A DNA stretch of 64,000 nucleotides from an uncultured Eggerthellaceae bacterium (lineage in GTDB: Bacteria > Actinomycetota > Coriobacteriia > Coriobacteriales > Eggerthellaceae), in the NCBI GenBank assembly GCA_910588095.1, contig CAJUQH010000009.1, forward strand, positions 2,606 to 66,605, read 5' to 3'. The notes under the pieces were generated by a model. The model did no database searches, was not told the DNA's origin, and saw only the letters and a program-made list of their open reading frames with translations. A program made the position numbers and the translations under genes. Positions within the stretch are counted from its first letter, which is position 1. Every line of letters begins with the position of its first letter. Positions 1 to 48,505 of this stretch are shown here, piece after piece.

Positions 1-1101
1 GATGATGGGCTCTTTGCAATCAATCCCTCAACCGTTGTGGTTAGGCTACCGGAAAATGCTGACCAGCATATATGGTCGTTACTAGGGTTAAAAATCCTTC
101 TTGAAGATATAAGCATTGCTACGGCAGCAACCTACGCTGCCAGTTCATCTTTCATCAATGGAGGAGGCGGAGCTCTGTCCGTTTTTCGCCAAGTAGGGCT
201 TGATGCGACAAGCATGACCGCTATTGCAAACGGTTTATCGCAGTGGACGGCATCATGGACGCACGCAACTTCGATATTTGCCGATACTCCCGTTGTGCAC
301 TATTGGCAAGACGATTATTTCTTTGAGGTTAAGGTGTCGAGAGCGCATTATAGCTTTGCTGGTTGGAATGTGAACGGGGCAAAGCTTCCCAACACAACAC
401 CTCTAGTGGCGGGGGCTACTGTTACGGCACTTTGGACGCCATCTGCCTATTCGATTTCTTGTAATTATGGAGGCGGCAGTGTAAGCACGCCCAACAAGAC
501 GAGTTACCACATCGAAACCAGCACGTTCAACCTGATCAATCCGACCAGGCAAGGCTACACCTTCATTGGCTGGTCGGGTACGGGTCTTTCCGGCTCTGCC
601 AACAAGACAGTTACTATCTCGCAGGGCTCGACGGGGAATCGTTCCTATGTGGCTCATTGGGCGCCCGCTTTGTCAGCCGATATACCCGTCGAGGTGGAGG
701 CGCGGGTAGACGTGCTCGGGATGGAAGAACAGGAGCCGGCAGCGGGTTACATCGAGTCGCGTTGCGGCGAGCCGCTTAAGGTGGCCGAGGTGTCCATGGA
801 ACCGCTGACAGGGGCGACCGAGCTGTTCGGCGCAGGCAACGAATCCCAGGTGCAGCTGCAAGCGCTCGCAGGCCAGGGCGCCGTGTGGCAGCCCGGTGGC
901 GCCAACGCGAGCTTCGCGTTCCCGCTGGGGTCTTCCGCGACCGAAGCCGACCCAGCAAAGCTCGCGCCCTTGTGCATGGCGAAGTACGGCGACCGCGTGC
1001 CCGTGAGCTACCGCTTCTCCATCCCGGAGGCGCTGCTCGCGACCTTGACCGAAACCGCCAAGCCAGTCTGCTCGGTGGCCTACACGGTAGCGTTGGCGTG
1101 A
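1..1101 (+). CDS. Secreted repeat surface protein, 5'-truncated by the window edge (Flg_new/Listeria-Bacteroides-type repeat plus family C-terminal domain)
   Basis: The frame of track ORF 37..1101 is stop-free from nt 1. Carries the repeat 'GYTFIGWSGTGLSGSANKTVTISQGSTGNRSYVAHW'. The last ~145 aa (WAPALSADIPVEVEARVDVLG...KPVCSVAYTVALA) closely match the C-termini of 25977..29027 and 45431..48505. Confidence 0.75.
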   Translation, partial: DDGLFAINPSTVVVRLPENADQHIWSLLGLKILLEDISIATAATYAASSSFINGGGGALSVFRQVGLDATSMTAIANGLSQWTASWTHATSIFADTPVVHYWQDDYFFEVKVSRAHYSFAGWNVNGAKLPNTTPLVAGATVTALWTPSAYSISCNYGGGSVSTPNKTSYHIETSTFNLINPTRQGYTFIGWSGTGLSGSANKTVTISQGSTGNRSYVAHWAPALSADIPVEVEARVDVLGMEEQEPAAGYIESRCGEPLKVAEVSMEPLTGATELFGAGNESQVQLQALAGQGAVWQPGGANASFAFPLGSSATEADPAKLAPLCMAKYGDRVPVSYRFSIPEALLATLTETAKPVCSVAYTVALA

Positions 1102-1125
1102 TAACGGCTCCTGAAGGCTTTCACG

Positions 1126-1237: not shown

Positions 1238-1253
1238 CATTATAGGGGTGAAT

Positions 1254-2555
1254 ATGCTACGAAGGAAGGCCGAAAAGGCCCTGGCGGAGTGGAAAGCCTC
1301 CGGAGCGAACGAGGCGGTGCTGGTTACGGGCGCTCGCCAGGTGGGGAAGTCTTATCTGGTAGAGGAGTTTGCCCGGCAAAACTATTCCCATGTGGTGAAG
1401 TTCGACCTGATTGACCAGGCCGATGTCCGCGACGCGATGAATGGCGTTCGCAATGCGCAAGAGCTTTTCATGGTGCTATCTGCCTTTGCGGGAACGCAGT
1501 TCGTTCCTGGCGAGACGGCCGTCATCATCGATGAGATTCAAGAATGCGACCAGGCCATCACTCTTATCAAGTATCTTGTCCAACGCCAAGATTTCGACTA
1601 CCTCCTTTCAGGCTCTCTCTTGGGCGTGGAATTGAATGATGTGCGCTCTGTGCCAGTTGGGTATTTGCGCATAGTGGAGATGTTTCCCCTGGATTTCCAG
1701 GAGTTCTGCTGGGCCAATGGGGTAGGTGAAGATGCATGGCTGGAGATAGAGAAGGCATTCCAGCATAGACGGCCGGTGCAGACAGCCGTGCATGAGCGCT
1801 TTCTCACATTGTTCCATTGGTACCTTGTAGTGGGCGGCATGCCACGGGCGGTAGGCGAATTCGTGAAAACAAGCGACATAGCAGCCGTGAACGCGATCCA
1901 GAAAGACATTCTTGCCCTCTACCGCATCGATATCTCAAAGTACGCTGAACGTGGCAAGAGGCTGGCTATCCGCGAGATATTCGACCAGCTGCCTTCGCAG
2001 CTCGATTCCCAATCGAAGCGCTTTAACTTTTCTGCATTGGCCCCACGGGGAACTTACGAGCGTTATACGACGGATTTCGTCTGGATGGTTGATGCGAGTG
2101 TGGTTATCGTGGTGCGCAACGTAAAGGAGCCAAAACGGCCGCTGCGTCTGATGGAAGATAGGAGCTTCTTCAAGCTATTCATGAACGATGTGGGGTTGCT
2201 GAGCGCAGCTTGCGGAATGGATGCAGTTCGTAGTTTGGTCTCGGATGATTTCGCGGTGGCATATGGCGCCATCTACGAGAACGCTGTGGCGCAGGAGCTT
2301 CACGCACACGGCGTGGGTGGCTTTTTCTTCCGCAATCGCAAGCAAGGTGAGATAGATTTTTTGGTGGGGACGTCCTCGAAGGTTCTGCCAATCGAGGTTA
2401 AATCGGGCAAGGATTATAAACGCCACAATGCGCTGCGTAACGTTCTTGCGGTTCCGAATTATGGCATCGATGAGGGGATCGTCTTGTGCGAGAAGAACCT
2501 GCATGTTGATGGGCAGGTTATCTATTGTCCCGCTTACATGGTGGCGCTCATCTAA
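1254..2555 (+). CDS. AAA+ ATPase of the DUF4143 / COG1373 type, with a PD-(D/E)xK-like C-terminal region
   Basis: Walker A 'GARQVGKS', Walker B 'VIIDEIQ', C-terminal 'GEIDFLV...PIEVKSGKDY'. ATG 1254 is preceded by AGGGGTG; the track ORF opens at TTG 1212. Confidence 0.8.
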   Translation: MLRRKAEKALAEWKASGANEAVLVTGARQVGKSYLVEEFARQNYSHVVKFDLIDQADVRDAMNGVRNAQELFMVLSAFAGTQFVPGETAVIIDEIQECDQAITLIKYLVQRQDFDYLLSGSLLGVELNDVRSVPVGYLRIVEMFPLDFQEFCWANGVGEDAWLEIEKAFQHRRPVQTAVHERFLTLFHWYLVVGGMPRAVGEFVKTSDIAAVNAIQKDILALYRIDISKYAERGKRLAIREIFDQLPSQLDSQSKRFNFSALAPRGTYERYTTDFVWMVDASVVIVVRNVKEPKRPLRLMEDRSFFKLFMNDVGLLSAACGMDAVRSLVSDDFAVAYGAIYENAVAQELHAHGVGGFFFRNRKQGEIDFLVGTSSKVLPIEVKSGKDYKRHNALRNVLAVPNYGIDEGIVLCEKNLHVDGQVIYCPAYMVALI

Positions 2556-2582
2556 TCACGGCAGAGTGTCGGGCTTGCCCCT

Positions 2583-2639
2583 TTGATTGAAGCTGCCAAG
2601 CCCGTCTGCTCGGTGGCTTATACGGTGACGTTGGCGTGA
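2583..2639 (+). pseudogene. Orphan 3' tail (last 18 codons plus stop) of a surface-protein paralogue
   Basis: Translates to LIEAAKPVCSVAYTVTLA*, against ...LTETAKPVCSVAYTVALA* at 1045..1101. No upstream body; it begins 28 nt after the ATPase stop codon. Confidence 0.65.
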
Positions 2640-2658
2640 GCCTTCTACTGCCCATAAG

Positions 2659-2829
2659 CTAGCCCGTCGCATATTCCATGATGCGGCGGGCGGTGTTGCG
2701 GCTGACTTTCGAGACGTCGCCTTTGCCGAGGTAGGCGTAGACGTTCCCCAGGTTGAGACCAAGTGTCTTGCATACGCGGTAAGCCGTCAGTCGCCGGCGC
2801 TCCATGGCATCGAGCGTTGCCTTGCGCAT
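2659..2829 (-). CDS. Small (56 aa) helix-turn-helix DNA-binding protein, divergent from surface-protein locus A
   Basis: MRKATLDAMERRRLTAYRVCKTLGLNLGNVYAYLGKGDVSKVSRNTARRIMEYATG. ATG at 2829. The longer 107-aa track ORF has an implausible N-terminal extension. Confidence 0.5.
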   Translation of the reverse strand: MRKATLDAMERRRLTAYRVCKTLGLNLGNVYAYLGKGDVSKVSRNTARRIMEYATG

Positions 2830-2842
2830 GAGCTCGATGATG

Positions 2843-2852
2843 CCCCCCCCCC
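2843..2852. repeat. C10 (G10 on the - strand) homopolymer
   Basis: Read directly. It sits 13 nt upstream of the HTH ATG on the - strand and directly abuts the TTGCGC -35 of the surface-gene promoter on the + strand. Confidence 0.95.
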
Positions 2853-2882
2853 TTGCGCGTTCGTGCCGAGGCGTGCTAGAGT
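2853..2882 (+). promoter_or_regulatory. Predicted sigma70-type promoter of surface locus A: TTGCGC-N18-TGCTAGAGT (extended -10)
   Basis: The same -35, 18-nt spacer and TGCTAGAGT are found at 44982..45011 upstream of locus C. Confidence 0.5.
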
Positions 2883-2981
2883 TCGTGCCAACCTGAAAGG
2901 GATGCTTATGCGAGGCTCCCGAGTAGGGCGTCTCATCGGGAAAATGGGATTTGCTTTCGAATCGGGAAGGAAGCAACCGCA

Positions 2982-3125
2982 ATGGATAACCTCACGCAGG
3001 CAAGCTGTGCGCTTGCGCGCATCGCGCGCAGGGCGAGCTGCGCCCTCGTATCGGGCCTTCTGGCCGCAAGCCTCGTCCCAGCCCCTGCCTTCGCGCAGAA
3101 TGCTGAGGGGGGGGTAGCCTCCTAA
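2982..3125 (+). other. Detached signal-peptide ORF of surface locus A (47 codons), out of frame with the body
   Basis: MDNLTQASCALARIARRASCALVSGLLAASLVPAPAFAQNAEGGVAS*. RBS GGGAAGGAAG upstream. Runs through the G8 tract and stops at TAA 3123..3125. Confidence 0.75.
3107..3114 (+). repeat. G8 homopolymer at the signal-peptide/mature-protein junction (candidate phase-variation tract)
   Basis: Read directly. The body frame is stop-free from nt 3107 to 6988. Confidence 0.95.
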
Positions 3126-3247
3126 GCCAAAACATATCCGCTGACGGGTCGGATGGCCCTTCAGCTCACGCACAGCCCGGCAATGATGCCGACGTAGACG
3201 GCGCGGGTGCCGTTGCAGCCCAAGCGGCCGACGGTCTCGCAGCGCCG

Positions 3248-6200
3248 GTGCTGGCCGCTTCGATAGCCGTGCCTTACGAAGGGCGCGTGAGCGCCGATAT
3301 GGCGTTGGGGCCAGATGAGTCGGCACCGCTTGCTGTCGGCTCCTTCACCGTCGACGGCCTCTCCTTCCAGGTGCGCGCTGATGGCTCGGCTGAGTTGGTG
3401 GCGGTCAATTCCCCGGCTGACGCTTACCTTGCGCCGGCTCCCTTCAAGATGCCCGGCGGCTCTCCAGTGGTCACGTTGGAAGTGCCCGCTGCGGTGACCT
3501 ACTACGATGTCGAGTACCCAGTGACTGCGCTCGGCGCCCATGCGTTCTACCTATCGGGCGTGCTGCGAGTCGTGCTGCCTGTCTCCATCGCCTCGGTTGA
3601 CGAGCGGGCCTTCCGCTCGTCCGATGTCGCTTGGGTCGATGTCGACCCCCTCAACCTCGCCTATTCCTCTCATGACGGCGTTCTCTACGACGCCGATCTC
3701 GTTAGCCTCCTGCTCATTCCCGGGGGCAGGGGAGGGGCTGTCCGAGTCCCCGACACGGCTACCTCGGTGCCGGCATCTGCGTTCTCGCATTGCGCAGGGG
3801 TCAGCGCCATAGCCGTCGATGAGGGCAGCCCCGCATTCTCCTCCTGGGAAGGACTCCTATACGATGCCGACGGCACGACGCTTTTGCGCGTGCCCGCAGG
3901 CGCAACCGAGGTCACCATCCGCGAGGGCTGCACCTCAATAGCCGCTGGCGCCCTTGAGGCCTGCGCGAAGCTCGAGCGCATCAACGCGCCAGCGAGCGTG
4001 ACTTCGATATCGCCTGATGTGCTTGCTTCTATCCCCACAGTCTCCTTGCCCGTCGCTTCTGCTTTGGATGGCTCACAGTTGGCCACAGAGGATGATGTTC
4101 TGGAGGATGCACACATAGCCCAGACACTTGCATCAGGGCCCGCCGATGGTTCCAGCAGGGCCGATGGGAGCGAGACGGCGTCCAACCCAGAAGCTTTCGA
4201 TGCAGGGCAAGCTCCTTCAGAGACGGCTTCGCCCCAGTCTTCTCGCACTTCTCCTTCCGAAGCCTCCAGCCCTGCCAATGCGCAGCTCGCCTCGCTCGTA
4301 GCGTTGTCTTCCACGGAGGCTGATGCGACGCCTCAGGTTGATGCTGCTTTCATATCGGTGTGGTTGCCAGAAGGGGCGGTTAAAGCGCTATGGGAAACGG
4401 CAGGATTTGCGGTTTCCAAAGAAACGGCAGCCGTGGCTCCCGGTAGTGACTCCCAGGAGGAAGGGCCGACTGCTGCTATCGAGGGGTCAATGGCCTATGC
4501 CGCCCAATACAACCTTACCAGCTATGCCAACGGCACGATGTATATCGGCTCGTGGACATCCTCCGCCTCCCCTTCTGGCTCAATCAACTCTACGCGATCT
4601 GCAGGATCAGGCTATTACTTTCCCGACAAATGGATAGCGTTCAGTGCTTCTAATGCTTGTGTCACCCATTGGAACGATGAATTGCAGCCAGCGCAGCCTT
4701 ATTGGTACACTGGCATCGGGTCGGTGACGGGCGGCGTGAAGTACGCGACGCTCAACGGGGCATCCTTCAGCGGATCGACGTATCTTTCGGGCGCGGCTAC
4801 CTTATGGATGTACAACGAGACTTCGCCTGTCACCATCACATGGAATGCCAGCTGGACAGGGGGCACTGTGTCCCCTGCATCGAGCCGGCCTGCGTTGGGA
4901 AGCACGCTCAACGCTCCGCTCCCCACGAAGACAGGCCATGACTTCACGGGCTGGTATACCGCCTCGACCGGTGGCTCCAAGGTGTGTGGCAGCGCTTCAT
5001 CTGGGGGTACGACGCCAGCAATCCGCAACAGCGCCACCTACTATGCCCGCTTCACGCCCCATACCTACACGGTCACTCTTGATGCTAAGGGGGGTACGGG
5101 TGCTGGCGGCCCGGTCAAGGCGACATACGGCTCGGCGCTTGCAAAGGTGGCAATCCCCCTCAAGGCTGGGGAGGTGTTCGCCGGCTATTACACCGAAGCA
5201 GATGGCGCAGGTACGCGCATCTACGACGAGCAGGGGAATCCTGCGGTCAGCACATGGAGCATCGCCAAGGACACCACCCTGCATGCCCAGTGGACGGCTA
5301 TCGACTTCGATTTGGATTCGGAGCCAAAGGACGAGGACTACGTCGGCTCTTGGAAAGGCGAAAGCCCCGATGTGACCTTAGAGGAGGGTACGGGCGATCA
5401 GGTGATAGCCAATCCCCAGCGTCCGGGCTATGTGTTCATCGGCTGGGTGTCCGACAATGACCCGAACGATAAGGGGCTGGTCTCGTCGGTTGGAGAAGGC
5501 GATGACAAGAAATGGGTCATCGACTCGGATAAGCTGTTGGATTATACGGGAGAGGATGGCCGGGTGCACCTCACCGCTCGCTGGACCTCCGTCATATCGG
5601 TCGACGTGCCGAGCTCCGTCACGTTCTACGCCGACGCGGTCACCCAAGGAAACGAGAGCCGAGAGGGCTTGGCATCGAGCGCCTTCGGCCAGAGCAAGGT
5701 GGCTAGCCAATCCGAGGTCGACCTTCGCATAGTGGGCCTCGAGTCCAAGCAAGTCAAAGGCAACGGCTCGACGAGTCTCGGTGCTTCTGACATACTCAAG
5801 AAGAAGGATGGCGGCACCGTATCCGGCACAGCTGACAAGCTGTTCAGCTTGTACCCGGCAACTGGCGAGCTCAAAGAAGACGACCTCAAGGACCCCGACC
5901 GCACATCTGCCAAGCCAGCCGACGCGGTCGACTTCTCCCTCGATGACATCCTGCTCGAGAAGTCCTTTGCCGCAGACGAGTTCACCATCCCAGCCGGAGA
6001 CACCCTCTCCCTCGGCTACCGCTTGAACCTCCAAGAAACGGGTACCGAGCTCGACTACGACAAGCTCTCCACCCTCAGCGAGGGCGCTTCCGCCTTCATT
6101 GCGAACATCAGCTATTGCTTCGCTGCGGACGCGCTGCCGTCGGACTGGGGCGAGCCGCTCTGGATCGAGAACCCAGACCAATCTACGAACCCAGCTAAGT

Positions 6201-6988
6201 ACCTCTTGCTCAAAGACATCAAGGCAGCCGCTGATGACCTCTCCGCCAACGGAACATCCTCGACCTATTACTCCATGTACAAGAGCATGCTCGACAGCCA
6301 AGTGACGAATAACGGCAACGCGGGGCGAGGTCCTTACTTCCAATTGAAGGTCGGCAACGCTTACATCGACCTGCAGCTTATCGGGATATGCCAAGACACC
6401 AAATCTGCAGGCGGCAAGGCGGGCCTCACGTTCCAGACGAGGGATATCTACGCCTACGGCAGCATCAAGAGCATCGCAGCCGGTGGAGGCGCGTTCAGCA
6501 CCTACATGAACTTCACCAACACCAATGTGGGCGGTTGGGCCTCGTCTGCCATGCACTCTACCCTGATATCCACCTTCTGGAGTACGCTGCCTGTCGAGAC
6601 CCAGGCTGCCATCGTGGGCGTGGACAAGCACCAGCAGCTGCCCTCAGGCACCACGGCCTCCTACTTGCAGAAGACCACGGGTGAGACCGTCTGGCTTCCC
6701 TCCGTGCGTGAGGTCTTCGGGGCGGCTTTCGCCGACTACAACGAATCAGAGGCCTTGACCACCGTAGCTGGCTACGTTCCCTTCCAGTACATGGCCTATC
6801 AGCCCGGCGGCACGTCCACCCCCAACACCCGTGCCATCAAGACCTACAACGGGTCCGCTTGCATTTGGTGGTTGCGTTCGGCTTGTCGGTACAACACCAA
6901 CCTTTTCTGTCTTGTGCACTCGAACGGCGACCGCAATAACATCACTGCGAACAGCACCATTGGGGCGGCCCCCTGCTTCTGCTTATAG
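3248..6988 (+). CDS. Large surface protein body (BspA-type LRR, Flg_new repeats, family beta-rich domain, C-terminal DUF6273-like 'WWLRS' domain). Frameshifted relative to its signal peptide, so the full locus is 2982..6988
   Basis: 1246-aa ORF. LRR_5-like 'YPVTALGAHAFYLSGVLRVVLPVSIASVDERAF...'. Flg_new-like 'GHDFTGWYTASTGG', 'GYVFIGWVS'. C-terminal 'CIWWLRSACRYN'. Confidence 0.8.
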   Translation: MLAASIAVPYEGRVSADMALGPDESAPLAVGSFTVDGLSFQVRADGSAELVAVNSPADAYLAPAPFKMPGGSPVVTLEVPAAVTYYDVEYPVTALGAHAFYLSGVLRVVLPVSIASVDERAFRSSDVAWVDVDPLNLAYSSHDGVLYDADLVSLLLIPGGRGGAVRVPDTATSVPASAFSHCAGVSAIAVDEGSPAFSSWEGLLYDADGTTLLRVPAGATEVTIREGCTSIAAGALEACAKLERINAPASVTSISPDVLASIPTVSLPVASALDGSQLATEDDVLEDAHIAQTLASGPADGSSRADGSETASNPEAFDAGQAPSETASPQSSRTSPSEASSPANAQLASLVALSSTEADATPQVDAAFISVWLPEGAVKALWETAGFAVSKETAAVAPGSDSQEEGPTAAIEGSMAYAAQYNLTSYANGTMYIGSWTSSASPSGSINSTRSAGSGYYFPDKWIAFSASNACVTHWNDELQPAQPYWYTGIGSVTGGVKYATLNGASFSGSTYLSGAATLWMYNETSPVTITWNASWTGGTVSPASSRPALGSTLNAPLPTKTGHDFTGWYTASTGGSKVCGSASSGGTTPAIRNSATYYARFTPHTYTVTLDAKGGTGAGGPVKATYGSALAKVAIPLKAGEVFAGYYTEADGAGTRIYDEQGNPAVSTWSIAKDTTLHAQWTAIDFDLDSEPKDEDYVGSWKGESPDVTLEEGTGDQVIANPQRPGYVFIGWVSDNDPNDKGLVSSVGEGDDKKWVIDSDKLLDYTGEDGRVHLTARWTSVISVDVPSSVTFYADAVTQGNESREGLASSAFGQSKVASQSEVDLRIVGLESKQVKGNGSTSLGASDILKKKDGGTVSGTADKLFSLYPATGELKEDDLKDPDRTSAKPADAVDFSLDDILLEKSFAADEFTIPAGDTLSLGYRLNLQETGTELDYDKLSTLSEGASAFIANISYCFAADALPSDWGEPLWIENPDQSTNPAKYLLLKDIKAAADDLSANGTSSTYYSMYKSMLDSQVTNNGNAGRGPYFQLKVGNAYIDLQLIGICQDTKSAGGKAGLTFQTRDIYAYGSIKSIAAGGGAFSTYMNFTNTNVGGWASSAMHSTLISTFWSTLPVETQAAIVGVDKHQQLPSGTTASYLQKTTGETVWLPSVREVFGAAFADYNESEALTTVAGYVPFQYMAYQPGGTSTPNTRAIKTYNGSACIWWLRSACRYNTNLFCLVHSNGDRNNITANSTIGAAPCFCL

Positions 6989-24663: not shown

Positions 24664-25470
24664 ATGAAGGCACTCATACCTGCGGCAGGGCTCGGCACCC
24701 GGTTCCTGCCCGCCACCAAGGCCGTCCCCAAGGAGATGCTGCTGGTGGTGGACCGTCCCGCCATCCAGTACGTGGTGGAGGAAGGGCTGGCCTCGGCGGC
24801 TGACGAGGTGGTCATCATCAACAGCCCCGAGAAGACCGCCATCGAGGCGCACTTCACGCCCGACCCCGACTTCGTGGCGCTGCTGCGCGAGCGCGGGAAG
24901 GACGCGTACGCCGACGCGGTGGAGTACGTGGGCAACCTGAACGTGAGCTACGTGTACCAGCGCGAGGCCTTGGGGCTCGGGCACGCCGTGCGCTGCGCGG
25001 CCGAGAAGACCGGCGGCGAGCCGTTCTACGTGTTGTTGGGCGACGTGCTGGTGCCGGGCAACCAGATGCTGCCGGCTATGCAGGCCGTGAGCGATGCCCA
25101 CGACGGGGCCAGCGTCATCGCCGTCATGCCCGTGCCCGACGACCAGGTGAGCCGCTTCGGCGTCATCGCCGGGGCCGAGGTGGAGCCGGGCGTGTGGAAG
25201 GTGGACAGTCTGGTGGAGAAGCCGGCGCTGGAGGATGCGCCCTCGAACCTGGCCGTGTTCGGCCGCTACCTGCTCAGCCCGCGGGTGATGGAGCTGCTGG
25301 CCGACGTCGAGCCCGGCGTGGGCGGCGAGATCCAGCTCACCGACGCGCTGGACGCGGTGCTGCGCGAGGAGGAGATGTACGCGCTAGTGGTCGACCCGGC
25401 CGACGGATTCGACACCGGCACCGTCGAGAGCTGGCTCGAGACGAACAACACGCTGTTCGCGCGCCGCTAG
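24664..25470 (+). CDS. galU: UTP--glucose-1-phosphate uridylyltransferase
   Basis: 'MKALIPAAGLGTRFLPATKAVPKEML'. Confidence 0.9.
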   Translation: MKALIPAAGLGTRFLPATKAVPKEMLLVVDRPAIQYVVEEGLASAADEVVIINSPEKTAIEAHFTPDPDFVALLRERGKDAYADAVEYVGNLNVSYVYQREALGLGHAVRCAAEKTGGEPFYVLLGDVLVPGNQMLPAMQAVSDAHDGASVIAVMPVPDDQVSRFGVIAGAEVEPGVWKVDSLVEKPALEDAPSNLAVFGRYLLSPRVMELLADVEPGVGGEIQLTDALDAVLREEEMYALVVDPADGFDTGTVESWLETNNTLFARR

Positions 25471-25492
25471 CGCGATTCTGTAGAGTGGACGC

Positions 25493-25526
25493 AACAGGGG
25501 CCTTTCGGGGCCCCTGTTCTGTTTGC
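25493..25526 (+). terminator. Rho-independent terminator after galU
   Basis: AACAGGGGCC (25493-25502) pairs with GGCCCCTGTT (25509-25518), followed by a CTGTTTG tail. Confidence 0.7.
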
Positions 25527-25700
25527 GAGGTGGCGGTTTCGTAGTGCTCGGCCGCCTTGGGTCGCGTCCTCGGTTTCTTCATGTTGAGTGAGAGTTGCCA
25601 GCTCGTTGGGCCTTTTTCCGGGCGGAATCTGCTGGCAGTATCGTTGGATAACGGCACCTGCCTTGCGCAAAGTCGCGCGGCTTTGATACACTCCAAGGTG

Positions 25701-25740
25701 CTAAACAACGGTCCTCTGCATAGAGGAATCGCAAACAAAC
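25701..25740. repeat. Left arm of an inverted repeat: CTAAACAAC-[18-nt insert with hairpin TCCTCTGCATAGAGGA]-ATCGCAAACAAAC
   Basis: Perfect 13-bp (25728-25740) and 9-bp (25701-25709) matches to the reverse complement of 25840..25864. Confidence 0.85.
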
Positions 25741-25839
25741 GAATATCAGCTTCTTTGAGCAATGGATTCTTCTTTCCATCGAACAAGGTATAAAGAGGGC
25801 ATCTGCCTATCAAGACACCTTGCTTGCTGGAAACATCCA

Positions 25840-25864
25840 GTTTGTTTGCGATCTTGTTGTTTAG
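25840..25864. repeat. Right arm of the inverted repeat: GTTTGTTTGCGAT-ctt-GTTGTTTAG
   Basis: Reverse complement of the left arm. The arms enclose a 99-bp AT-rich core (25741..25839) containing TATAAA (25789-25794). Confidence 0.85.
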
Positions 25865-25976
25865 CGACTGTGGTGGATGCCCTCCTTATCCATCGGTCGC
25901 TGAGCAAGCAACCTGACCATAAGGGTCTCCTCCGCAGTGTGGTAAACGACCGCACCACGGGAAGGAGCCGGTTGCA

Positions 25977-28900
25977 ATGCGAGCACCTGCTGTTTCTTTC
26001 GCACACAAGATCGCTGCTGCCACCCTGGCGGCTTTGCTGACGTTCACCCTCGTGCCTTTCGCCCATGCAGATGGGGAAGGGATTGGGGCCGAGGGGTCCG
26101 AGGGGGCATTCGGCTCAAGGGGTTCCGAAGCGAAGCAAGTACCTTTAGGTGCAACTTCGCTTCAACCCCCATCGGACCCCTCGACTGAGGCTGCTGATCC
26201 TTCCGTCACCCTGAGCGGAACCGCCGAAGGCGGCGAAGTCGAAGGATCCGATACAAAACCACTGACTTTGGCATCGGGGTTGGTCGGCACTCCCTCTAAC
26301 TTCATCAACTCCGACGTTGCCCTCGACAGCGAGCCCGTCATCGGTTCCTTCACGGTCGACGGCCTCACTTTCGCTGTTGCGGAAGGCTCGACCGTAGAGT
26401 TGGTAGGGGTCGCCGGGGCCGAGGGGGCATTCGGCTCAGAGGTTCCAACTTCGCCTCAACCCCCATCGGCCCCGACGCCCGAAGCTGTGAACCTTGTTCT
26501 TCCAGAAACCGTCGCTTACGAGGGCTCGGAATATACCCTCGCCTCCATAGCTCCCTACGCCTTATACCTCTCGGGCGTGACTGACGTCACGTTGCCTGCG
26601 AGCGTATCCGACGTGGACGACCGCGCATTCCGCTCAAGCGATGTGGCGAGCGTCACGGTTGCTGAAGGCAACCCAGCCTATTCCTCTTCCGACGGCGCCT
26701 TGTATGACGCCGACCAACTCAGCCTCTTGCTCATTCCCGAGGGCAAGCAGGGCACTGTCCGCATCCCGAAGACCGCAGAGGTGGCAGAGGCCAGCGTGTT
26801 CTCGCATTGCCCGCTGGCGGATTCCATCTCTGTGGATGCGGGCAGTGCAGCATTCGCCTCGGAGAATGGTCTTTTATACACGTCCGACCTCACGACCCTG
26901 CTCCGTGTACCAGCCGGTGCGACCGAGATAACTATCCGAGAGGGCTGCACGACCATAGCTGCCGGCGCCATGGAAGCTTGTGCTAACCTCACGACCATCA
27001 ACGCACCCGCGACCGTTACTTCAATCAGTCCTGATGTCTTCCACGCGATACCGACTGTGAGTCTGCCGGCTGCTTCTGTCATTCTGAGCGAAGCCGCTGA
27101 AGGCGGCGAAGCCGAAGAGCCCAATGAAAACCAAGCCAGCAAAGTTGGCGACCAACTTACCGCCATGGTCGCTCTGTCCTCGACTGATGATGACCTGTTG
27201 GAGGTTAGACCCTTTGCAATCGAAGTTGAGTTGCCTGAGGGGGTCGACACGGCCGTCTGGCAGCATCGGGAATTTCTTATAAATGAAACCTCTTTTGAAG
27301 ATAATGGACAACCTGTTGAAGCCGCCTTGGAAAGAGAGCTTCAGACATCAGAAACATATGCTGCTGGCACCTATACCCTTATCGTGTACTCGGGTAGCTA
27401 TGGAGGTACCATCAGCGGCTCGGAAGCAGGGTCAGGAAATCCGCTAACAATAACCGGAGTTACGCGCTTCACAGCATACGGGCCAAGTTCTGCTGGAAGG
27501 GGGTCTCTTCAGTATTTAAAAAATGGGTCGCTGTATCAAGTTACCGCAGCGCGGGGCAGCTCTGTTTCTTTGATTGGATGGAACGTAATGGGCGTGGGCT
27601 GGGCTCGGGATTCAGGGGATGTTACGATGCAGTCTCCACAGAATTCCATGGAAGTTACTGTTGCGGCAATTTGGAGTGATTTCACTTATAGGGTGAACTA
27701 TAACCTCAATGGGGGTATCCAAAATTACTGGAATGGGTGGGCCTATCATCCTGGCGAAAGGATAACCTTCGCTACTCCTACTAAGCTGGGTTATGACTTT
27801 GGCGGCTGGTATAACAACGCTGCTCTCTCTGGAAGTCGAATCGAATCAGTGACAAGCGTGGCGGGAGGGTCGCTGTCTCTTTGGGCAAAATGGATCCCCA
27901 AGACTTATCAGTTGAGCTATAGCCTCGACAATGGATCCTGGGTCGGCCCGATTCCCGCAAGAGACACCTACACCATCGAGACGCCTACGTTCGTGCTGCC
28001 GTCTGTGGAGAGGAAAGGCTATGCCTTCTCTGGTTGGTCAGGAACAGGCCTCACCGGTTCTGCCAACAAGACGGTCACCATCGCAAATGGCTCTACCGGT
28101 AATCGCTCCTATACAGCTCACTGGACCCCCAACTCCTATACCGTCCAGTACCGCAACAAAGCAGACACGGCCACTCTGTCTACTGATGCAGGCTTCAAGT
28201 ACGATACGGCAAGAGCTCTTGCAGCCAAGCCGACGAGCGGCGTCAGCGCAGGCTATACCGCAGTGGGCTGGGCAACGGCGAAGGACCAATCGAGCGCGAC
28301 GTATGCGTTTGGCAGCTCTCAGAAGAACCTCGCGACCTCAGGCACGAGGAAGCTCTACCTAGCCGAGAAGGCCAACCCCTACGCCATCGCCTTCGATTCC
28401 CAAGGCGGCCCAGAAGTGCCCTCCATCGGCGCCACCTACGACCAGGACGTGACGCTGCCAGCGCCAGGTGCCCGCAACGGGTACCGGTTCCTAGGATGGA
28501 ACACGAAAGCCGACGGCAGCGGGACGGCCTATCAAGCAGGTGTGGTCCTCGCCAAGCCCAACCTCGCCACGAGCGGCACGGCCACGCTCTTCGCCCAGTG
28601 GGATGCGGTCATATCGGCGGTGGTCCCCCTTGAGGTGCAAGCCCAAGTCGACGTGCTCGGGCTGGAAGCGCCCAAGGAGGCGCAAGGCTGCATCGAGTCG
28701 CGCTGCGGCGAGCCTCTTAAGGTGGCAAGGGTGGACCTCACCCCGCTTGACGGCGCAGCCGAGCTGTTCGGCGAGGGCAACGTATCTGACGTGTTCCTCG
28801 AGGTGCTGGCAGAAGGCAGCACCTCTCCCAACGCCCGCTTCTCCTTGGGCTCTTCCGCAACCGAATCCGACGCATCCAAGCTCCAAGCCTTCACCATGGC

Positions 28901-29027
28901 AAGCTACGGCACGCGGATGCCCATAAGCTACCGGTTCGCCATGCCGTCTGACGTGCAGACCTCGCTTCTCGAGCATGCCGACCCGAAGCCGGTCTGCACG
29001 GTGGCGTATACGGTGGCTTTGGCGTAG
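25977..29027 (+). CDS. Large secreted surface protein, intact (signal peptide, BspA-type LRR, Flg_new repeats, family C-terminal domain)
   Basis: 1016 aa. Signal peptide 'MRAPAVSFAHKIAAATLAALLTFTLVPFAHA'. LRR_5-like 'IAPYALYLSGVTDVTLPASVSDVDDRAF'. Several 'GY.F.GW' Flg_new repeats. C-terminus '...KPVCTVAYTVALA'. Confidence 0.9.
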   Translation: MRAPAVSFAHKIAAATLAALLTFTLVPFAHADGEGIGAEGSEGAFGSRGSEAKQVPLGATSLQPPSDPSTEAADPSVTLSGTAEGGEVEGSDTKPLTLASGLVGTPSNFINSDVALDSEPVIGSFTVDGLTFAVAEGSTVELVGVAGAEGAFGSEVPTSPQPPSAPTPEAVNLVLPETVAYEGSEYTLASIAPYALYLSGVTDVTLPASVSDVDDRAFRSSDVASVTVAEGNPAYSSSDGALYDADQLSLLLIPEGKQGTVRIPKTAEVAEASVFSHCPLADSISVDAGSAAFASENGLLYTSDLTTLLRVPAGATEITIREGCTTIAAGAMEACANLTTINAPATVTSISPDVFHAIPTVSLPAASVILSEAAEGGEAEEPNENQASKVGDQLTAMVALSSTDDDLLEVRPFAIEVELPEGVDTAVWQHREFLINETSFEDNGQPVEAALERELQTSETYAAGTYTLIVYSGSYGGTISGSEAGSGNPLTITGVTRFTAYGPSSAGRGSLQYLKNGSLYQVTAARGSSVSLIGWNVMGVGWARDSGDVTMQSPQNSMEVTVAAIWSDFTYRVNYNLNGGIQNYWNGWAYHPGERITFATPTKLGYDFGGWYNNAALSGSRIESVTSVAGGSLSLWAKWIPKTYQLSYSLDNGSWVGPIPARDTYTIETPTFVLPSVERKGYAFSGWSGTGLTGSANKTVTIANGSTGNRSYTAHWTPNSYTVQYRNKADTATLSTDAGFKYDTARALAAKPTSGVSAGYTAVGWATAKDQSSATYAFGSSQKNLATSGTRKLYLAEKANPYAIAFDSQGGPEVPSIGATYDQDVTLPAPGARNGYRFLGWNTKADGSGTAYQAGVVLAKPNLATSGTATLFAQWDAVISAVVPLEVQAQVDVLGLEAPKEAQGCIESRCGEPLKVARVDLTPLDGAAELFGEGNVSDVFLEVLAEGSTSPNARFSLGSSATESDASKLQAFTMASYGTRMPISYRFAMPSDVQTSLLEHADPKPVCTVAYTVALA

Positions 29028-43578: not shown

Positions 43579-43597
43579 ATATGAGGACTAGGCTACG

Positions 43598-44956
43598 ATG
43601 AAAGGGCTTCCCATGAGAAGGCATATAACTGCGAAGCTCGAAGAGTGGAAGCGCTCGCCGCGGAGGAAGCCGCTGCTGCTTCGGGGAGCTCGGCAAGTAG
43701 GGAAGACCTGGGCTCTCACTGAGTTCGGGCGTGCTTCCTATGAGAACCTGGCTTACTTCAACTTCGACCTCAACGCGGAATACAGGCAGTTCTTTCAGCT
43801 GACCAAAGACCCGCATCGTATCATGGAGAATCTGGCTGCCGCCAGCGCTCAACCTATCTTCCCCGAGAAGACCTTGATCGTGTTCGACGAGGTGCAGGCG
43901 TGTCCCGAGGCCATCGCGTCGCTCAAGTACTTCTGCGAGCAGGCACCGGACTATCACATTGCTTGCGCTGGGTCGCTGCTCGGGGTGGCTCTGTCGCATC
44001 CGGCATCTTTTCCTGTGGGCAAGGTGGACGTGATGGATATGCACCCTATGACCTTCGAGGAGTTCTTGGCTGCAGGCGACGGGGCAATCTTGGCGGCGTA
44101 TCTTAGGGGGGTTGATGCTCTTGAGCCCCTACCTGATGCGTTCTTCAACCCGCTGTTGGAGAAGCTGCGTCTCTACTTCCTGACCGGCGGCATGCCCGAA
44201 GCGGTGCTCGTGTGGCTTGAGACCCGCGATGTGGGGGCGTTGCAAGCCACGCTGAGCAACTTGCTCGACCTTTACGCGCTTGATTTCCAGAAGCACGCGC
44301 CGGAATCGCTTTTCGCGAAGATAGAGCTCGTGTGGCGGTCGATGCCCTCGCAGCTTGCGCGCGAGAACAAGAAGTTCCTCTATAGCTTGGTACGGGAAAG
44401 CGCCCGTGCCCGCGAGTACGAGGATGCTATCGAATGGCTGGTCAAGGCCGAGCTGCTGACCAAGGTGACGCGCTGCGCGAAGCCCGCCCTTCCGCTGAGC
44501 GCCTATGACGAGCCGCAGGCGTTCAAGCTGTACCTGCTCGATGTGGGTCTGCTGCGGCGGTTTTCGTCGTTGGCTCCCTCGGCCATAACGGAGGGCAACC
44601 GCCTGTTCACGGAATTCAAAGGGGCATTGACGGAGAACTTCGTGCTACAGGAGCTGCTGCCTCAGTTCGATGCGCGCCCACGCTACTGGGTTATGGATAA
44701 CCCGCGATACGAAGTGGACTTCATGGTGCAATCGGACAACGACATCGTTCCCATTGAGGTCAAGGCGGGCGAGAACGTGAAGGCGAAAAGCCTACGGAAG
44801 TATCGCGAGAAGTACGAGGCCGCAACGCCGCTGGCGGTGCGCTTCTCGCTGCGCAACCTGACGTGCGAAGGGGGCGTGCTCAATGTGCCGCTTTTCATGG
44901 CTGGCCAAACCGAGCGCTTGCTGCAGCTTGCCAAAGAAGGACCCTGCCGTCGCTAA
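43598..44956 (+). CDS. AAA+ ATPase of the DUF4143 / COG1373 type (second, divergent copy)
   Basis: Walker A 'GARQVGKT', Walker B 'IVFDEVQ', C-terminal 'YEVDFMV...PIEVKAGENVK'. Confidence 0.8.
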   Translation: MKGLPMRRHITAKLEEWKRSPRRKPLLLRGARQVGKTWALTEFGRASYENLAYFNFDLNAEYRQFFQLTKDPHRIMENLAAASAQPIFPEKTLIVFDEVQACPEAIASLKYFCEQAPDYHIACAGSLLGVALSHPASFPVGKVDVMDMHPMTFEEFLAAGDGAILAAYLRGVDALEPLPDAFFNPLLEKLRLYFLTGGMPEAVLVWLETRDVGALQATLSNLLDLYALDFQKHAPESLFAKIELVWRSMPSQLARENKKFLYSLVRESARAREYEDAIEWLVKAELLTKVTRCAKPALPLSAYDEPQAFKLYLLDVGLLRRFSSLAPSAITEGNRLFTEFKGALTENFVLQELLPQFDARPRYWVMDNPRYEVDFMVQSDNDIVPIEVKAGENVKAKSLRKYREKYEAATPLAVRFSLRNLTCEGGVLNVPLFMAGQTERLLQLAKEGPCRR

Positions 44957-44970
44957 GGCTCAGACGCTTG

Positions 44971-45011: not shown

Positions 45012-45128
45012 GCGCATCACTTGGCGGCTTCGAGCTTCACCTGTTGCAATGCGAGCGCAGGGGCAGCAAGGACGCTGAGCAAAACGGGAACATACTTTGC
45101 TTTCGCATCGGGAAGGAAGCAAGACGAA

Positions 45129-45257
45129 ATGCGAATCGGTAACGCCTTGCGGCATGCTGCCGCATCATCTTTCGGCATAGCCTTGTCTATCATGTTGGCT
45201 TCAAGCCTGCTGCCCGCTGACGCCTTGGCAGAAGGCGTGGGGGGGGTAGCCCTCTAA
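45129..45257 (+). other. Detached signal-peptide ORF of surface locus C (42 codons), out of frame with the body
   Basis: MRIGNALRHAAASSFGIALSIMLASSLLPADALAEGVGGVAL*. RBS GGGAAGGAAG upstream. Runs through the G8 tract and stops at TAA 45255..45257. Confidence 0.75.
45239..45246 (+). repeat. G8 homopolymer at the signal-peptide/mature-protein junction (candidate phase-variation tract)
   Basis: Read directly. I translated the body frame codon by codon from 45239 to 45431 and found no stop. Confidence 0.95.
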
Positions 45258-45430
45258 GCCAAAGCGAACCAGATCCTGGTTCGGAGGTCCCTTCAGCCTC
45301 TGAAGAAGCTGCGGAAGGCGCCGCTGCGGATGGCGGTGCAGGCGCTGATGCGGAAGGCGGGCCTTCCGTCACCCTGAGCGAAGGGGCCGCAGGCCCCGCA
45401 GTCGAAGAATCCAGTTCAAAACTACAAACC

Positions 45431-48400
45431 TTGGCCTCTGCCCTTGCGGGCAAGCCCGCCGCGTTCGTCAACGCCGATGTCGCCCTCGATGGTGAGCCTA
45501 TTGTGGGCTCCTTCACCGTCGATGGTTTGACCTTCGCGGTCACAGGGGAATCCCACGTCGAGCTCGTCGGGGTTGCCCCTTCCGTCACCTTGAGCGGAGC
45601 TGCCGAAGGCGGCGAAGCCGAAGGGCCCGATGAAGGCCACGCCAGCGAAGCTAGCGTCGCCAACCTCACCCTCCCCGGATCCGTCACCTACTCCGACACT
45701 GACTACGCCCTCGCCTCCATTGGCGCCTACGCGTTCTACCTCTCGGGCGTGGCCGATGTCATGCTGCCCGCAAGCGTGAACGATGTTGATGACCGTGCGT
45801 TCCGCTCGAGCGACGTCGCCAACGTCACCGTCGCCGACGGCAACCCCAGCTTCTCCTCCTACGACGGCGTCCTCTACGACGCCACCCGATCAAGCCTCCT
45901 GCTCATTCCCGGGGGCAGGCAGGGCGCTGTCCGCATCTCCGACAAGGCCGAGGAGGTGGACGCGTCGGCCTTCTCGCATTGTGCTGGCGTGGATTCGATC
46001 TCGGTCGATGCGGGCAGCGCGCACCTCTCCTCCTGGGAAGGACTCCTATACGATGCCGATGGCACGACGCTCCTGCGCGTGCCGGCAGGCGCCACCGACA
46101 TCACCATACGAGAGGGCTGCACGACCATAGCCGCCGGCGCCATGGAGGGCTGCGCGAGCCTTGAGCGCATCAACGCACCATCGACCGTGACCTCCATCAG
46201 CCCGGATGTGTTCCATGCGCTGCCAACAGTGAGCCTGCCAGCCGCCGCTTTTGCAAAGGAGGCAACGCAGCTCACGGCCATGGTTGCCTTGTCCGCTACC
46301 GGGGAGGATTCCCCACGAATAGACCCGAGCACCATTTTCGTCACAGTGCCTTCTGAGGCCAATGCGATGCTATGGCGCAAGGTTGGGCTCGTGCTTGCAT
46401 CAAACGCCTTGGTTGATGCAGATGAGCCAGCTGCCCAATCGCCAGCTCTATTTGGAGCACCGCGTGTTGCCGGCTATGATTCGACTGCGAATTTCAGCAG
46501 TGTTTTGGGTGGTGGAAATGCTCAATGGTCTTTCAATTCCTCTAGTGGCAATCTGACGATTTGCTGCCATGTCATGGGTGGCCGTCCTTCGATCATCGAT
46601 GATCAATTCAAGTACACTGTCGGCTCTGGTGACCGAGTCAATTACTCAGCTGTCCCTTGGTATAGCTTCAAGGATGAGATAAAGAGCATCACATTCATCG
46701 ACTTCGACGCAACGGACACGACGGCATGGTTTGCGGGCTGCCGCAACCTTGAGAGCATAAGGTTCGTTGCGCAGAACACGGCAAAGCCGCCGCTATCGTC
46801 GGTCGTTTCGACATCTCGCATGTTCGAGAGCTGTGGAAAGCTTAAGGCCATTCCCTCGAACTTTACGTTGGAGGCTTCGACGGAGCTCGTGTCGACCAAT
46901 CATATGTTCACCGATTGCGTAAGCTTGTCGGGCAGCATCCCCGCGGGTATGACGCTCACAGCAAGCGGGAAAAAGCTCGTCCAAGTGGCATGCATGTTCG
47001 CCAATTGCGTGAAGCTATCTGGCGAGATTCCTTTTACGCTAGAGAATTATGCTGGCACGGGTTTCGACTATATGTTCGCATCTTGCCGGAAGATAACCAA
47101 CATACCGTCTCGTTTCACGATGCCGTCTGGCGCAACCGTGACATCTGCTTTCAAGGTGACGATGGACGCGGCCGCGATTCGTGCTGGACAAGGCGATGGA
47201 AGCATCGATTTAAACGGCAAGCTGGTGACCACTTATGCGGGAACGAATAGCGTTGTCAAAGGGCTGAACTGGGACCTATGGGAACGGTCGCTTGGAACTC
47301 AGAGATATGAGATTGTGTTCAACACGAACGGGGGAAGCGGGGAATTCTACCAGACAAGGGTGGGCGCCGTTTATGGGTCGCAGCTCCTCTATAGCACTCC
47401 GGTTTACCGTCTGCCCTCTCCCGCGTTGGAGAAGACGGGGTATGGCAATTGCGACGGATGGATTCTCGGCAAAGCCACAGGCGATAAAACCCATGGGCTC
47501 GGCGCGGAGGTCTCTAACCTTACGGCTACGCCGAATGGCACCGTAACGTTCTACGCGCACTATACTCCGAACGACTATGCGATCTCGTTCGATGTCAACG
47601 GAGGCAAGGATGCTCCCAACAACAAGCCGGTCGATGCGACCGCCACATTCGATGCTGCGTTGCCGGCCATCGGCGCCAACAAGCCAGTGCGGGATGGTTA
47701 CGCTTTCAGCGGGTGGTATGACACCAGCGCCGCCACAGGCGGGAACATGTACTACGATGCGGAGAATAGGGCAGTACCGGGGAAGGCTTGGGACAAGGCC
47801 GACAATACGACCCTGTATGCGCGTTGGACGCCCAACAGCTACACCATCGCCTTCGACTCCCAGGGCGGGCCGGAGGTGGCATCCATGCAAGCGACCTATG
47901 ACTCCGATGTGACGCTGCCCCAGCCTGGTGGGCGCGAAGGCTATGCGTTCGGGAGCTGGAATACCGAAGCTGACGGAAGCGGGGCGGCTTATCAAGCCGG
48001 CATCGCTCTTGCGAAGCCCAACTTGACGACAAGCGGCACGGTTCCGCTTTATGCCCAATGGGTCGCGATCGAAGAAGCAGTCGTGCCCCTTGAGGTGACC
48101 GCGCGGGTGGACGTGCTCGGCATCGAGGACCAGACGCCAGCAACGGGCTACATCGAGTCACGCTGCGGCGAGCCGCTGAAGGTGGCCTCTGTTGAGATCA
48201 CCTCGCTGCCTGGCGCGACCGAGCTGTTCGGCGCGGGCAACGAATCCCAAGTGCAGCTTCAAGCGCTCGCAGGGGAAGGCGCCGCATGGCAGCCTGGCGG
48301 TGCCAACGCCAGCTTCTCGTTCCCGCTGGGGGCTTCCGCGACCGAATCGGACGCAGGCAAGCTGGCTGCCCTCACCATGCAAGCCTACGAGGATCGCGTC

Positions 48401-48505
48401 CCGATAAGCTACCGCTTCGCGATACCCGAGGCGCTGCTGTCCAGCCTAGCCGAAACCACCAAGCCTGTCTGCTCGGTGGCCTACACGGTGGCGCTGGTGA
48501 GCTAA
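45431..48505 (+). CDS. Large surface protein body (BspA-type LRR_5, DUF285-type 'MFxxC' repeats, Flg_new repeats, family C-terminal domain). Frameshifted relative to its signal peptide, so the full locus is 45129..48505
   Basis: 1024-aa ORF. 'IGAYAFYLSGVADVMLPASVNDVDDRAF'. 'MFESCGKLKAIPSNF / MFTDCVSLSGSIP / MFANCVKLSGEIP / MFASCRKITNIPSRF'. 'GYAFSGWYD', 'GYAFGSWNT'. C-terminus '...KPVCSVAYTVALVS'. Confidence 0.8.
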   Translation: MASALAGKPAAFVNADVALDGEPIVGSFTVDGLTFAVTGESHVELVGVAPSVTLSGAAEGGEAEGPDEGHASEASVANLTLPGSVTYSDTDYALASIGAYAFYLSGVADVMLPASVNDVDDRAFRSSDVANVTVADGNPSFSSYDGVLYDATRSSLLLIPGGRQGAVRISDKAEEVDASAFSHCAGVDSISVDAGSAHLSSWEGLLYDADGTTLLRVPAGATDITIREGCTTIAAGAMEGCASLERINAPSTVTSISPDVFHALPTVSLPAAAFAKEATQLTAMVALSATGEDSPRIDPSTIFVTVPSEANAMLWRKVGLVLASNALVDADEPAAQSPALFGAPRVAGYDSTANFSSVLGGGNAQWSFNSSSGNLTICCHVMGGRPSIIDDQFKYTVGSGDRVNYSAVPWYSFKDEIKSITFIDFDATDTTAWFAGCRNLESIRFVAQNTAKPPLSSVVSTSRMFESCGKLKAIPSNFTLEASTELVSTNHMFTDCVSLSGSIPAGMTLTASGKKLVQVACMFANCVKLSGEIPFTLENYAGTGFDYMFASCRKITNIPSRFTMPSGATVTSAFKVTMDAAAIRAGQGDGSIDLNGKLVTTYAGTNSVVKGLNWDLWERSLGTQRYEIVFNTNGGSGEFYQTRVGAVYGSQLLYSTPVYRLPSPALEKTGYGNCDGWILGKATGDKTHGLGAEVSNLTATPNGTVTFYAHYTPNDYAISFDVNGGKDAPNNKPVDATATFDAALPAIGANKPVRDGYAFSGWYDTSAATGGNMYYDAENRAVPGKAWDKADNTTLYARWTPNSYTIAFDSQGGPEVASMQATYDSDVTLPQPGGREGYAFGSWNTEADGSGAAYQAGIALAKPNLTTSGTVPLYAQWVAIEEAVVPLEVTARVDVLGIEDQTPATGYIESRCGEPLKVASVEITSLPGATELFGAGNESQVQLQALAGEGAAWQPGGANASFSFPLGASATESDAGKLAALTMQAYEDRVPISYRFAIPEALLSSLAETTKPVCSVAYTVALVS

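Follow-up and report, generated by a model that had tools for sequence, protein, structure and literature searches.

A genus-specific family of large leucine-rich repeat protein genes with recombining ends, locus-bound centres and candidate poly-G switches in an uncultured Eggerthellaceae bacterium

The window analysed here is a 64,000-nt stretch of DNA from an uncultured Eggerthellaceae bacterium (assembly GCA_910588095.1, contig CAJUQH010000009.1, positions 2,606 to 66,605). It belongs to contig C9 in a draft genome of 2.1 Mb and 38 contigs, and the GC content of the contigs lies between 61 and 68% (C1, C7, C9, C10, C17 and similar names denote contigs of this draft). Inspection of the window showed the 3′ end of one member (g1), three full-length members (g2, g3 and g4) and one 48-nt 3′ remnant of a family of large genes coding for putative secreted proteins with leucine-rich repeats (LRR), all of them on the + strand. 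An original prediction, made from the letters of the window alone, had described four large genes and a tail remnant on this strand, and all of these are present. It took them for mosaic genes with exchanged central cassettes. The comparisons presented below indicate, with a good degree of confidence, a family of 51 genes specific to the genus, in which the ends recombine, the centres stay bound to their loci, and 20 genes carry a G tract acting as a switch. The features of the family in and next to the window are as follows.

1 to 1101, + strand: g1 (C9_1727), 366 codons from the 3′ end of a family gene, ending ...KPVCSVAYTVALA
Contig C9:1212–1536, upstream of the window: the 5′ end of g1 and its G8 tract (a run of eight Gs), the tract lying at C9:1529
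2592 to 2639, + strand: orphan 3′-end remnant of 48 nt, identical to 1054 to 1101 at 41 of 48 bases, encoding ...AAKPVCSVAYTVTLA and then a stop codon
2982 to 6988, + strand: g2, whole
2982 to 3125, + strand: signal-peptide open reading frame (ORF) of g2 (MDNLTQ...LVPAPAFAQNAEGG), which enters the G8 tract and ends at the stop codon TAA at 3123–3125
3107 to 3114, + strand: G8 tract of g2, where one additional G would join leader and body
3107 to 6988, + strand: body frame of g2, 1293 codons, ending ...APCFCL, with an LRR N-module (about 3296–4060), a unique centre containing Flg_new, a divergent C-domain (5582–6127) and a DUF6273 end
25680 to 25976, + strand: upstream region of g3, 67–88% identical to about 40 other places in the genome and part of the duplicated 5′ module
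25977 to 29027, + strand: g3, intact, 1016 codons, lacking a G tract, with an N-module (about 26313–27077), a centre with four Flg_new stretches and a C-domain (about 28605–29024)
45129 to 48505, + strand: g4, whole
45129 to 45257, + strand: signal-peptide ORF of g4 (MRIGNALRH...LLPADALAEGVGG), with the stop codon TAA at 45255–45257
45239 to 45246, + strand: G8 tract of g4
45221 to 48505, + strand: body frame of g4, 1094 codons, with an N-module (about 45476–46249), a unique centre in which weak DUF285-like repeats precede Flg_new, and a C-domain (about 48065–48496)

Common to the family genes are stretches of upstream DNA, a signal peptide followed by an acidic linker, then a BspA-type LRR block, and a C-terminal domain with a beta-sandwich fold. 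The motifs from which the shared N-terminal block had been recognized, GSFTVDGL(T/S)F, AFRSSDVA and LLRVPAGAT(E/D)(V/I)TIREGCT(S/T)IAAGA, were all found in the translations, and the assignments to LRR_5 and Flg_new were borne out by Pfam for g2, g3 and g4. LRR_5 (PF13306) scored 29.3, 36.7 and 55 bits in these three genes, above the gathering score of 27.7 bits, and Flg_new (PF09479) scored 29.5, 63.7, 93.4 and 73.8 bits in g1 to g4, above its cut-off of 27 bits. The centre of g4 had also been credited with DUF285-type repeats; since DUF285 (PF03382) reached 14.9 bits (E = 0.022) against a cut-off of 25, this family assignment was rejected. The claim of a common C-terminal domain holds for g1, g3 and g4. 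In g2 the domain is present as a divergent internal copy (5582–6127), and the protein ends instead in DUF6273 (PF19789; 47.3 bits over residues 1138–1293, cut-off 23.5). Profile–profile comparison of the g2 copy with the terminal type (hhalign) gave a probability of 94.7% and E = 5.6e-8 at 18% identity, so that homology of the two C-domain types, although remote, is supported. The C-domain had no Pfam match. Its AlphaFold model (predicted local distance difference test, pLDDT, 80.7) is a beta-sandwich, for which a fold search gave no PDB match at E ≤ 1e-3; the hits were generic folds of the beta-sandwich or jelly-roll kind, with template modelling (TM) scores of at most 0.41.

A tblastn search with the LRR block yielded about 52 family matches in the genome. 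Fifty-one genes could be modelled, which together occupy 178 kb, or 8.5% of the 2.1 Mb genome. In the three species of the genus 52, 50 and 24 matches were found, while of 38 other relatives 36 had no match at E ≤ 1e-10 and two, belonging to other genera, had 9 and 5 weak matches. The expansion of the family is specific to the genus. No complete copy lacks an upstream region, a start codon or a signal peptide of its own. A single 5′ module common to all copies had been proposed; two distinct main 5′ types were found instead. One, present in g3, has a leader beginning MRAPAVSF... and no tract, and the other, present in g1, g2 and g4, has a different leader followed by G8, with G9 replacing G8 in a divergent subgroup. 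The 5′ module begins before the start codon; the part upstream of it measures about 165 nt in g4 and, in g3, up to about 300 nt. Of the places in which sequence from the region upstream of g3 (25470–25976) recurs, most precede no-tract family genes. At the 3′ end, two architectures were distinguished: a C-domain of 140 residues at the very end of the protein (...PVCSVAYTVALA), found in g1, g3 and g4, or a divergent copy of it followed by DUF6273 (...PCFCL), as in g2. An ending of the DUF6273 type, ...P(C/A)F(C/A)(L/I/F), is present in 22 of the 51 family genes. The 5′ and 3′ types occur in the combinations no-tract/VAL-end (16 genes), no-tract/DUF6273-end (16), G8/VAL-end (11), G8/DUF6273-end (3) and G9/DUF6273-end (3).

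Of the three full-length genes, only g3 is a single open frame. The original prediction had listed each of them as one gene, but g2 and g4 are split at the G8 tract in this assembly, their leaders and bodies lying in different frames: the leader ORF meets a TAA nine bases past the tract, and the body frame opens at the tract in the −1 frame. Possible hairpins past the tract were noted by eye, and no claim is attached to them. Runs of eight G or C are in large excess in the genome, which has 164 runs of length 6, 9 of length 7, 42 of length 8, 8 of length 9 and 2 of length 10. In 20 family genes, including g1, g2 and g4, a G8 or G9 tract lies directly past the signal-peptide cleavage region, and all 20 tracts are one G short of bringing leader and body into frame; the other 31 genes are always in frame. 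The same arrangement was seen outside the family. A second, unrelated family of secreted proteins (about 800 residues, with the leader MSV(A/S)...NAAA(K/R)LLA...) has a G8 past its leader, and its three tracts (C1:291838, C2:25485 and C11:54470) are likewise all one G short.

Comparison with other assemblies revealed length polymorphism. The loci L045 and L046 have G9 and G8, respectively, and differ by this single G, with no mismatches in 5902 bp. The L045 allele is in frame through the tract and has been called as a 961-aa protein. A second G9 allele was found at a different locus (L127). In congeners, family genes have 5′-end tracts of varying length, between G8 and G15, and both ON and OFF alleles occur among them; four related metagenome contigs all have G8. 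The database orthologues of tract-bearing genes seen in a first search and in four clusters were all truncated gene calls, a protein search with the read-through sequence of g4 gave no in-frame orthologue among 41 matches, and a scan of genome contigs other than those of this genome for the tract motif gave only one, unrelated, match in Halieaceae. Neither MutS_V (PF00488) nor NucS/NucS_C (PF01939) had a match in the genome, the completeness of which is 98.5%. It may therefore be that neither of the two known mismatch-repair routes exists in this genome, and homopolymers would then be unstable. An in-frame repeat tract that sets the frame state, and length polymorphism between otherwise identical genomes, are what is found in simple-sequence contingency loci. 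Given the excess of tracts, their frame relation, the G9 alleles, the range from G8 to G15 in congeners and the missing MutS_V and NucS, slipped-strand switching between ON and a more usual OFF state is the explanation favoured by the sequences.

Alternatively, G8 might itself be the functional state, decoded at a low constitutive level through −1 ribosomal frameshifting on G_GGG_GGG or through transcriptional slippage. All 23 post-leader tracts do have the same frame relation, no length other than G8 occurs among the 17 G8-type family genes or the four related metagenome contigs, and the zero-frame codons GGG GGG formally constitute an X_XXY_YYZ slippery site; the consistently truncated orthologues would fit as well. 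The in-frame G9 alleles at two loci elsewhere, in DNA that is otherwise identical, are not what this explanation predicts, nor are the mixed ON and OFF lengths of relatives. Translation in the zero frame would yield a useless peptide, about 40 residues long, and the lack of MutS_V and NucS matches favours tract instability. Decoding of G8 as the principal function of the tracts is thus considered improbable.

Exchange between family members was analysed with trees of the 27 genes having the terminal C-domain. In the N-module tree, G8 and no-tract genes are cleanly separated (Shimodaira–Hasegawa-like approximate likelihood ratio test, SH-aLRT, 98). In the C-module tree, the same label requires six changes, at least four of them forced by well-supported branches. 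With the C-module data, the approximately unbiased (AU) test rejected monophyly of the G8 group, which is defined by a feature outside the tested columns (p = 4e-44). With the N-module data, it rejected the pair formed by g3 and C1_188673 (p = 2e-50), whose C-modules are 95% identical, although in two of the three AU tests, the one on this pair included, the groups were picked after the trees had been seen, and p is therefore generous. A run test similar to that of GENECONV, which covered 46 genes with 499 polymorphic N-module sites and took the 95th percentile of the maxima from 200 column permutations as the threshold, detected significant conversion tracts in 81 of 1035 gene pairs, with the proviso that column permutation ignores spatial variation in rate. 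Among the significant pairs, g4 and C17_39265 are identical at 178 consecutive polymorphic sites. The conversion tracts concentrate in the 3′ half of the LRR block. Similarity at the 3′ ends is also high, the end of g4 being 97% identical to a copy on contig C7 and that of g3 96% identical to a copy on contig C1. The near-identity originally reported for the 3′ ends of g1 and g4 (822–960 versus 48220–48360) amounts to 84% (119 of 142 positions), with a longest exact run of 23 nt.

Differences between assemblies at the g3 and g4 loci fall in the following stretches.

26373 to 26928, + strand: stretch of the g3 N-module for which assembly L112 has a replacement
28506 to 28830, + strand: C-module patch of g3 that contains all differences between the window and L110
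45865 to 46060, + strand: crossover zone in the LRR block of g4, from the comparison with L050

In L050, the family gene that follows pepP and the ATPase gene is a chimera. A series of 171 informative sites of the C9/g4 type is followed by 678 of the C17_39265 type, with one switch, located inside 45865–46060, a stretch of identity between the two paralogues. Further downstream, the neighbouring genes also differ: a HepT/MNT pair and another family gene are present instead of SBP_bac_5. L050 is a single crossover in the conserved LRR block. At the g3 locus, L110 and the window differ at 26 positions over 6.1 kb, all within 325 nt of the C-module, and are identical elsewhere; if differences were spread uniformly, the chance of such clustering would be about 1e-32. 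The segment 28400–28900 of the window (501 nt) is 98% identical to the paralogue C1_188673. In L112, the N-module patch resembles the paralogues C10_4162 and C7_58263 more closely than it does g3; flanks and centre are nearly identical to those of the window. Together, these observations strongly support the exchange of ends between paralogues. Incongruent segment trees, long common tracts and alleles that are chimeric between strains are found together in gene families subject to ectopic conversion, such as bab and opa. The proposal of recombination or gene conversion between paralogues was therefore right in kind, but it was wrong about which parts move: the comparison of strains revealed patches and a crossover in the ends and not a single shuffled centre.

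It could be argued that mosaics and frameshifts are both errors of short-read assembly in a repeat family, the draft being in 38 contigs with ten family genes within 400 nt of a contig end. This is hardly credible, since g3 and g4 are far from the ends of their 75-kb contig and independent assemblies reproduce them at 99.6–100% identity, G8 tracts included. The position of family genes at contig ends, together with the finding that other assemblies end inside g3, indicates that the family does break assembly. In addition, gene callers cut about 20 family genes short, at internal start codons.

The central regions behave differently from the ends. The GC values originally counted, 46.7% at 27481 and 51.7% at 46801, are exact, and the contrast they illustrated is general: the GC content of the centre is below that of the N-module in 49 of the 49 family genes tested, and its GC content at third codon positions (GC3) is lower in 47 of the 49. 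Mean GC3 is 0.75 for N-modules, 0.59 for centres and 0.76 for C-modules, as compared with about 0.91 for core genes (nine of ten neighbouring core genes are at 0.85–0.95, and one is at 0.77). Centres are richer in Lys, Asn, Tyr, Trp and Thr. Part of their drop in GC is thus due to amino-acid composition, while the drop in GC3 is synonymous. Matches to any paralogue cover a median of 39% of a centre, and 12% when an identity of at least 85% is required, so that centres are mostly unique within the genome. Those of g3 and g4 were found at the same loci in several other assemblies, in all of those seen.

This bears on the cassette exchange at first proposed, in which centres would be copied or swapped among paralogues or from silent donors into fixed loci, with the ends serving as handles. 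vlsE, pilE/pilS and msp2 are known examples of such a layout. The combination of conserved ends with variable centres has the appearance of one, every combination of 5′ and 3′ types is found, and a few stretches inside or next to centres are highly similar between copies (g2 2550–3150 to about 12 copies at 80–89% identity, C27_14441 to C3_84855 at 97% over 1.1 kb). However, each copy has its own upstream region, start and leader, and promoterless partial cassettes are absent. An expression site with silent cassettes, of the kind seen in vls, pilE/pilS or msp2, is not present, the sole partial copy in the window being the 48-nt 3′ remnant. The uniqueness of the centres, and their constancy at g3 and g4 in assemblies that differ in the end modules, also contradict the proposal, and no centre had been swapped into a fixed locus in the assemblies compared. 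L050, finally, shows one crossover with exchange of the downstream flank rather than the replacement of a centre between fixed ends. Cassette exchange is therefore very improbable, and the end modules are the parts that move.

The composition of the centres raises another possibility, namely that they are arrays of domains acquired horizontally from donors of lower GC content, the mosaic reflecting accretion and not ongoing exchange. A GC3 of 0.59, against 0.91 in the core, and the absence of paralogue matches would be explained in this way, and according to the Pfam descriptions Flg_new and DUF285-like repeats are typical of low-GC Gram-positive bacteria and Mycoplasma. Yet the end modules too are below the core in GC3 (0.75), which makes for a gradient and not a sharp island, part of the fall in GC comes from amino-acid composition, and no donor was identified. 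Acquisition of this kind would leave the conversion patches and the chimera unexplained, although it is compatible with the recombination of ends favoured here. As an account of the family on its own, it appears unlikely.

The model that best accommodates these results is the following. A family gene consists of a conserved 5′ module (about 165–300 nt of upstream DNA, the signal peptide, the acidic linker and the LRR block), a long, locus-specific centre of low GC3, and a 3′ module made up of the terminal beta-sandwich C-domain or of its divergent copy followed by DUF6273. Ectopic homologous recombination acts on the two conserved modules. Short gene-conversion patches homogenize them and make them mosaic, and crossovers in the LRR block join a 5′ module, comprising the promoter region, the leader and any G-tract switch, to the body and downstream flank of another gene. 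Centres are inherited along with the locus, and the gain of one G by slipped-strand mispairing would turn a gene ON. Because leaders are present, the proteins are probably exported, and they may be displayed on the cell, in which case the system might vary adhesive or antigenic surface properties within the population.

Some observations speak against this model, in addition to the qualifications attached above to the AU and permutation tests. None of the 51 proteins has an LPXTG-like motif (LP.[TSA][GANS]) in its last 60 residues, and hydrophobic runs among the final 40 residues are at most five long, so that a C-terminal hydrophobic anchor was not detected. All 20 tracts are OFF in this genome, and ON alleles were seen in only two assemblies. 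Leaky decoding, by −1 frameshifting or by slippage of RNA polymerase, may be an additional or even an alternative route to expression. Lastly, comparison with this genome identified neither a donor nor a direction for the L110 and L112 patches.

The surroundings of the family genes include two ATPase genes of the same type in the window.

1212 to 2555, + strand: AAA_14/DUF4143 ATPase gene (Pfam), between g1 and g2
43598 to 44956, + strand: second AAA_14/DUF4143 ATPase gene, between pepP and g4

The first of these has a copy of the family 3′ end on either side. A third gene of this type is present in the genome (C3:45765–47075), and all three lie within 111–268 nt of a G8-type family gene. A HepT/MNT toxin–antitoxin pair is located between two G8-type family genes on C17 (about 36.2–37.1 kb), an arrangement kept in 14 of the 14 assembly loci shown that cover the region (L045–L048 and L121–L130). 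Divergent from g2, a small ORF on the − strand (MRKATLDAMERRRLTAYRVCKTLGL..., within 2659–2991) looks helix-turn-helix-like by eye. A homopolymer at 2843–2852, C10 on the + strand and G10 on the − strand, lies 13 nt upstream of its ATG, in the usual position of a ribosome binding site.

The copies had also been described as inserted at breaks in conserved operons, after galU and after pepP. A galU-like gene (NTP_transferase) and pepP (Creatinase_N/Peptidase_M24) do precede g3 and the g4 locus, respectively, but recent insertion is not supported for the position after pepP. The block from mgsA to pepP, of about 13 kb, is syntenic in relatives, and in a congeneric species a family gene is likewise found 3′ of pepP, which indicates that the position is old. 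In another comparison, L105 (G002:C1:1–2300, from a congeneric species) has a homologue of the window gene at 51131–52600 directly upstream of mgsA. This arrangement suggests a rearrangement at the species level with end points near the positions of g3 and g4.

In its logic, the closest analogue of the family is the bab genes of Helicobacter pylori, part of the hop family. There, babA, babB and babC have N- and C-terminal homology regions round a variable middle region, intragenomic gene conversion yields chimeric genes, a repeat tract about 56 bp past the initiation codon places the gene IN-frame or OUT-of-frame, and chimeras carry this tract onto other gene bodies (PMC4552749). The chimera in L050 similarly moves a G tract onto another body. 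The bab genes differ in occupying three loci (within the larger Hop family) as against 51 genes here, in coding for a Gram-negative beta-barrel outer-membrane protein and not for a secreted LRR/Flg_new protein without known anchor, and in having a CT dinucleotide repeat where poly-G is found here; the two families have no sequence homology. The Opa genes of Neisseria are also dispersed in multiple copies, each with its own promoter, are switched ON and OFF at the level of translation by a repeat in the region coding for the leader peptide, and have mosaic alleles derived from recombination between loci. Their repeat is a CTCTT pentamer and not a homopolymer, they comprise 11–12 small beta-barrel proteins as opposed to 51 large modular ones, and the segments exchanged are hypervariable, whereas conserved ends are exchanged here.

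For leader and body ORFs split by poly-G, the nearest precedent is provided by the sortase-dependent pilins of the gut commensal Bifidobacterium breve UCC2003, a high-GC Gram-positive bacterium. A homopolymeric G tract separates two ORFs that encode the Sec signal and the remainder of these pilins, and only a fraction of the population has a tract length that permits expression, replication slippage leading to ON (PMC9187656). That case concerns two LPXTG pilus loci, compared with at least 20 LRR genes without LPXTG in the present one, and recombination between pilin paralogues is not described. A further likeness is with BspA-like LRR proteins and Listeria internalins, since LRR_5 (BspA type) and Flg_new (the InlB B-repeat) were both matched here above their cut-offs. 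Those proteins form multigene families involved in host interaction. In contrast to them, the present family has no LPXTG, GW modules, lipobox or type IX secretion system signal, has a C-domain of its own and accounts for a much greater part of the genome. No description of the family for this group was found in the literature searched. It is a new and very large example, in a high-GC bacterium, of a kind of system that is already known.

A stronger version of the model may be considered tentatively and with more doubt than belief. It would have two layers, in which about 20 independent G8/G9 switches operate while LRR crossovers move the 5′ cassette bearing the switch, so that the set of switchable bodies varies. 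On this view, interaction with the host or a partner in this genus would depend mainly on the family, and the GC3 gradient, with ends above centres, would mark the zones of recombination as a result of GC-biased gene conversion. If true, such an engine would be one not yet described in high-GC Gram-positive commensals.

In practical terms, the family accounts for contig ends in the draft and for about 20 truncated gene calls. More broadly, the many secreted LRR proteins, the continuing ectopic recombination and the more than 20 homopolymer switches together bear the signature of a system for host interaction or immune evasion. Such a combination has mostly been studied in pathogens, and the family described here would offer a concrete case of surface microdiversity within a strain of a probable gut commensal.

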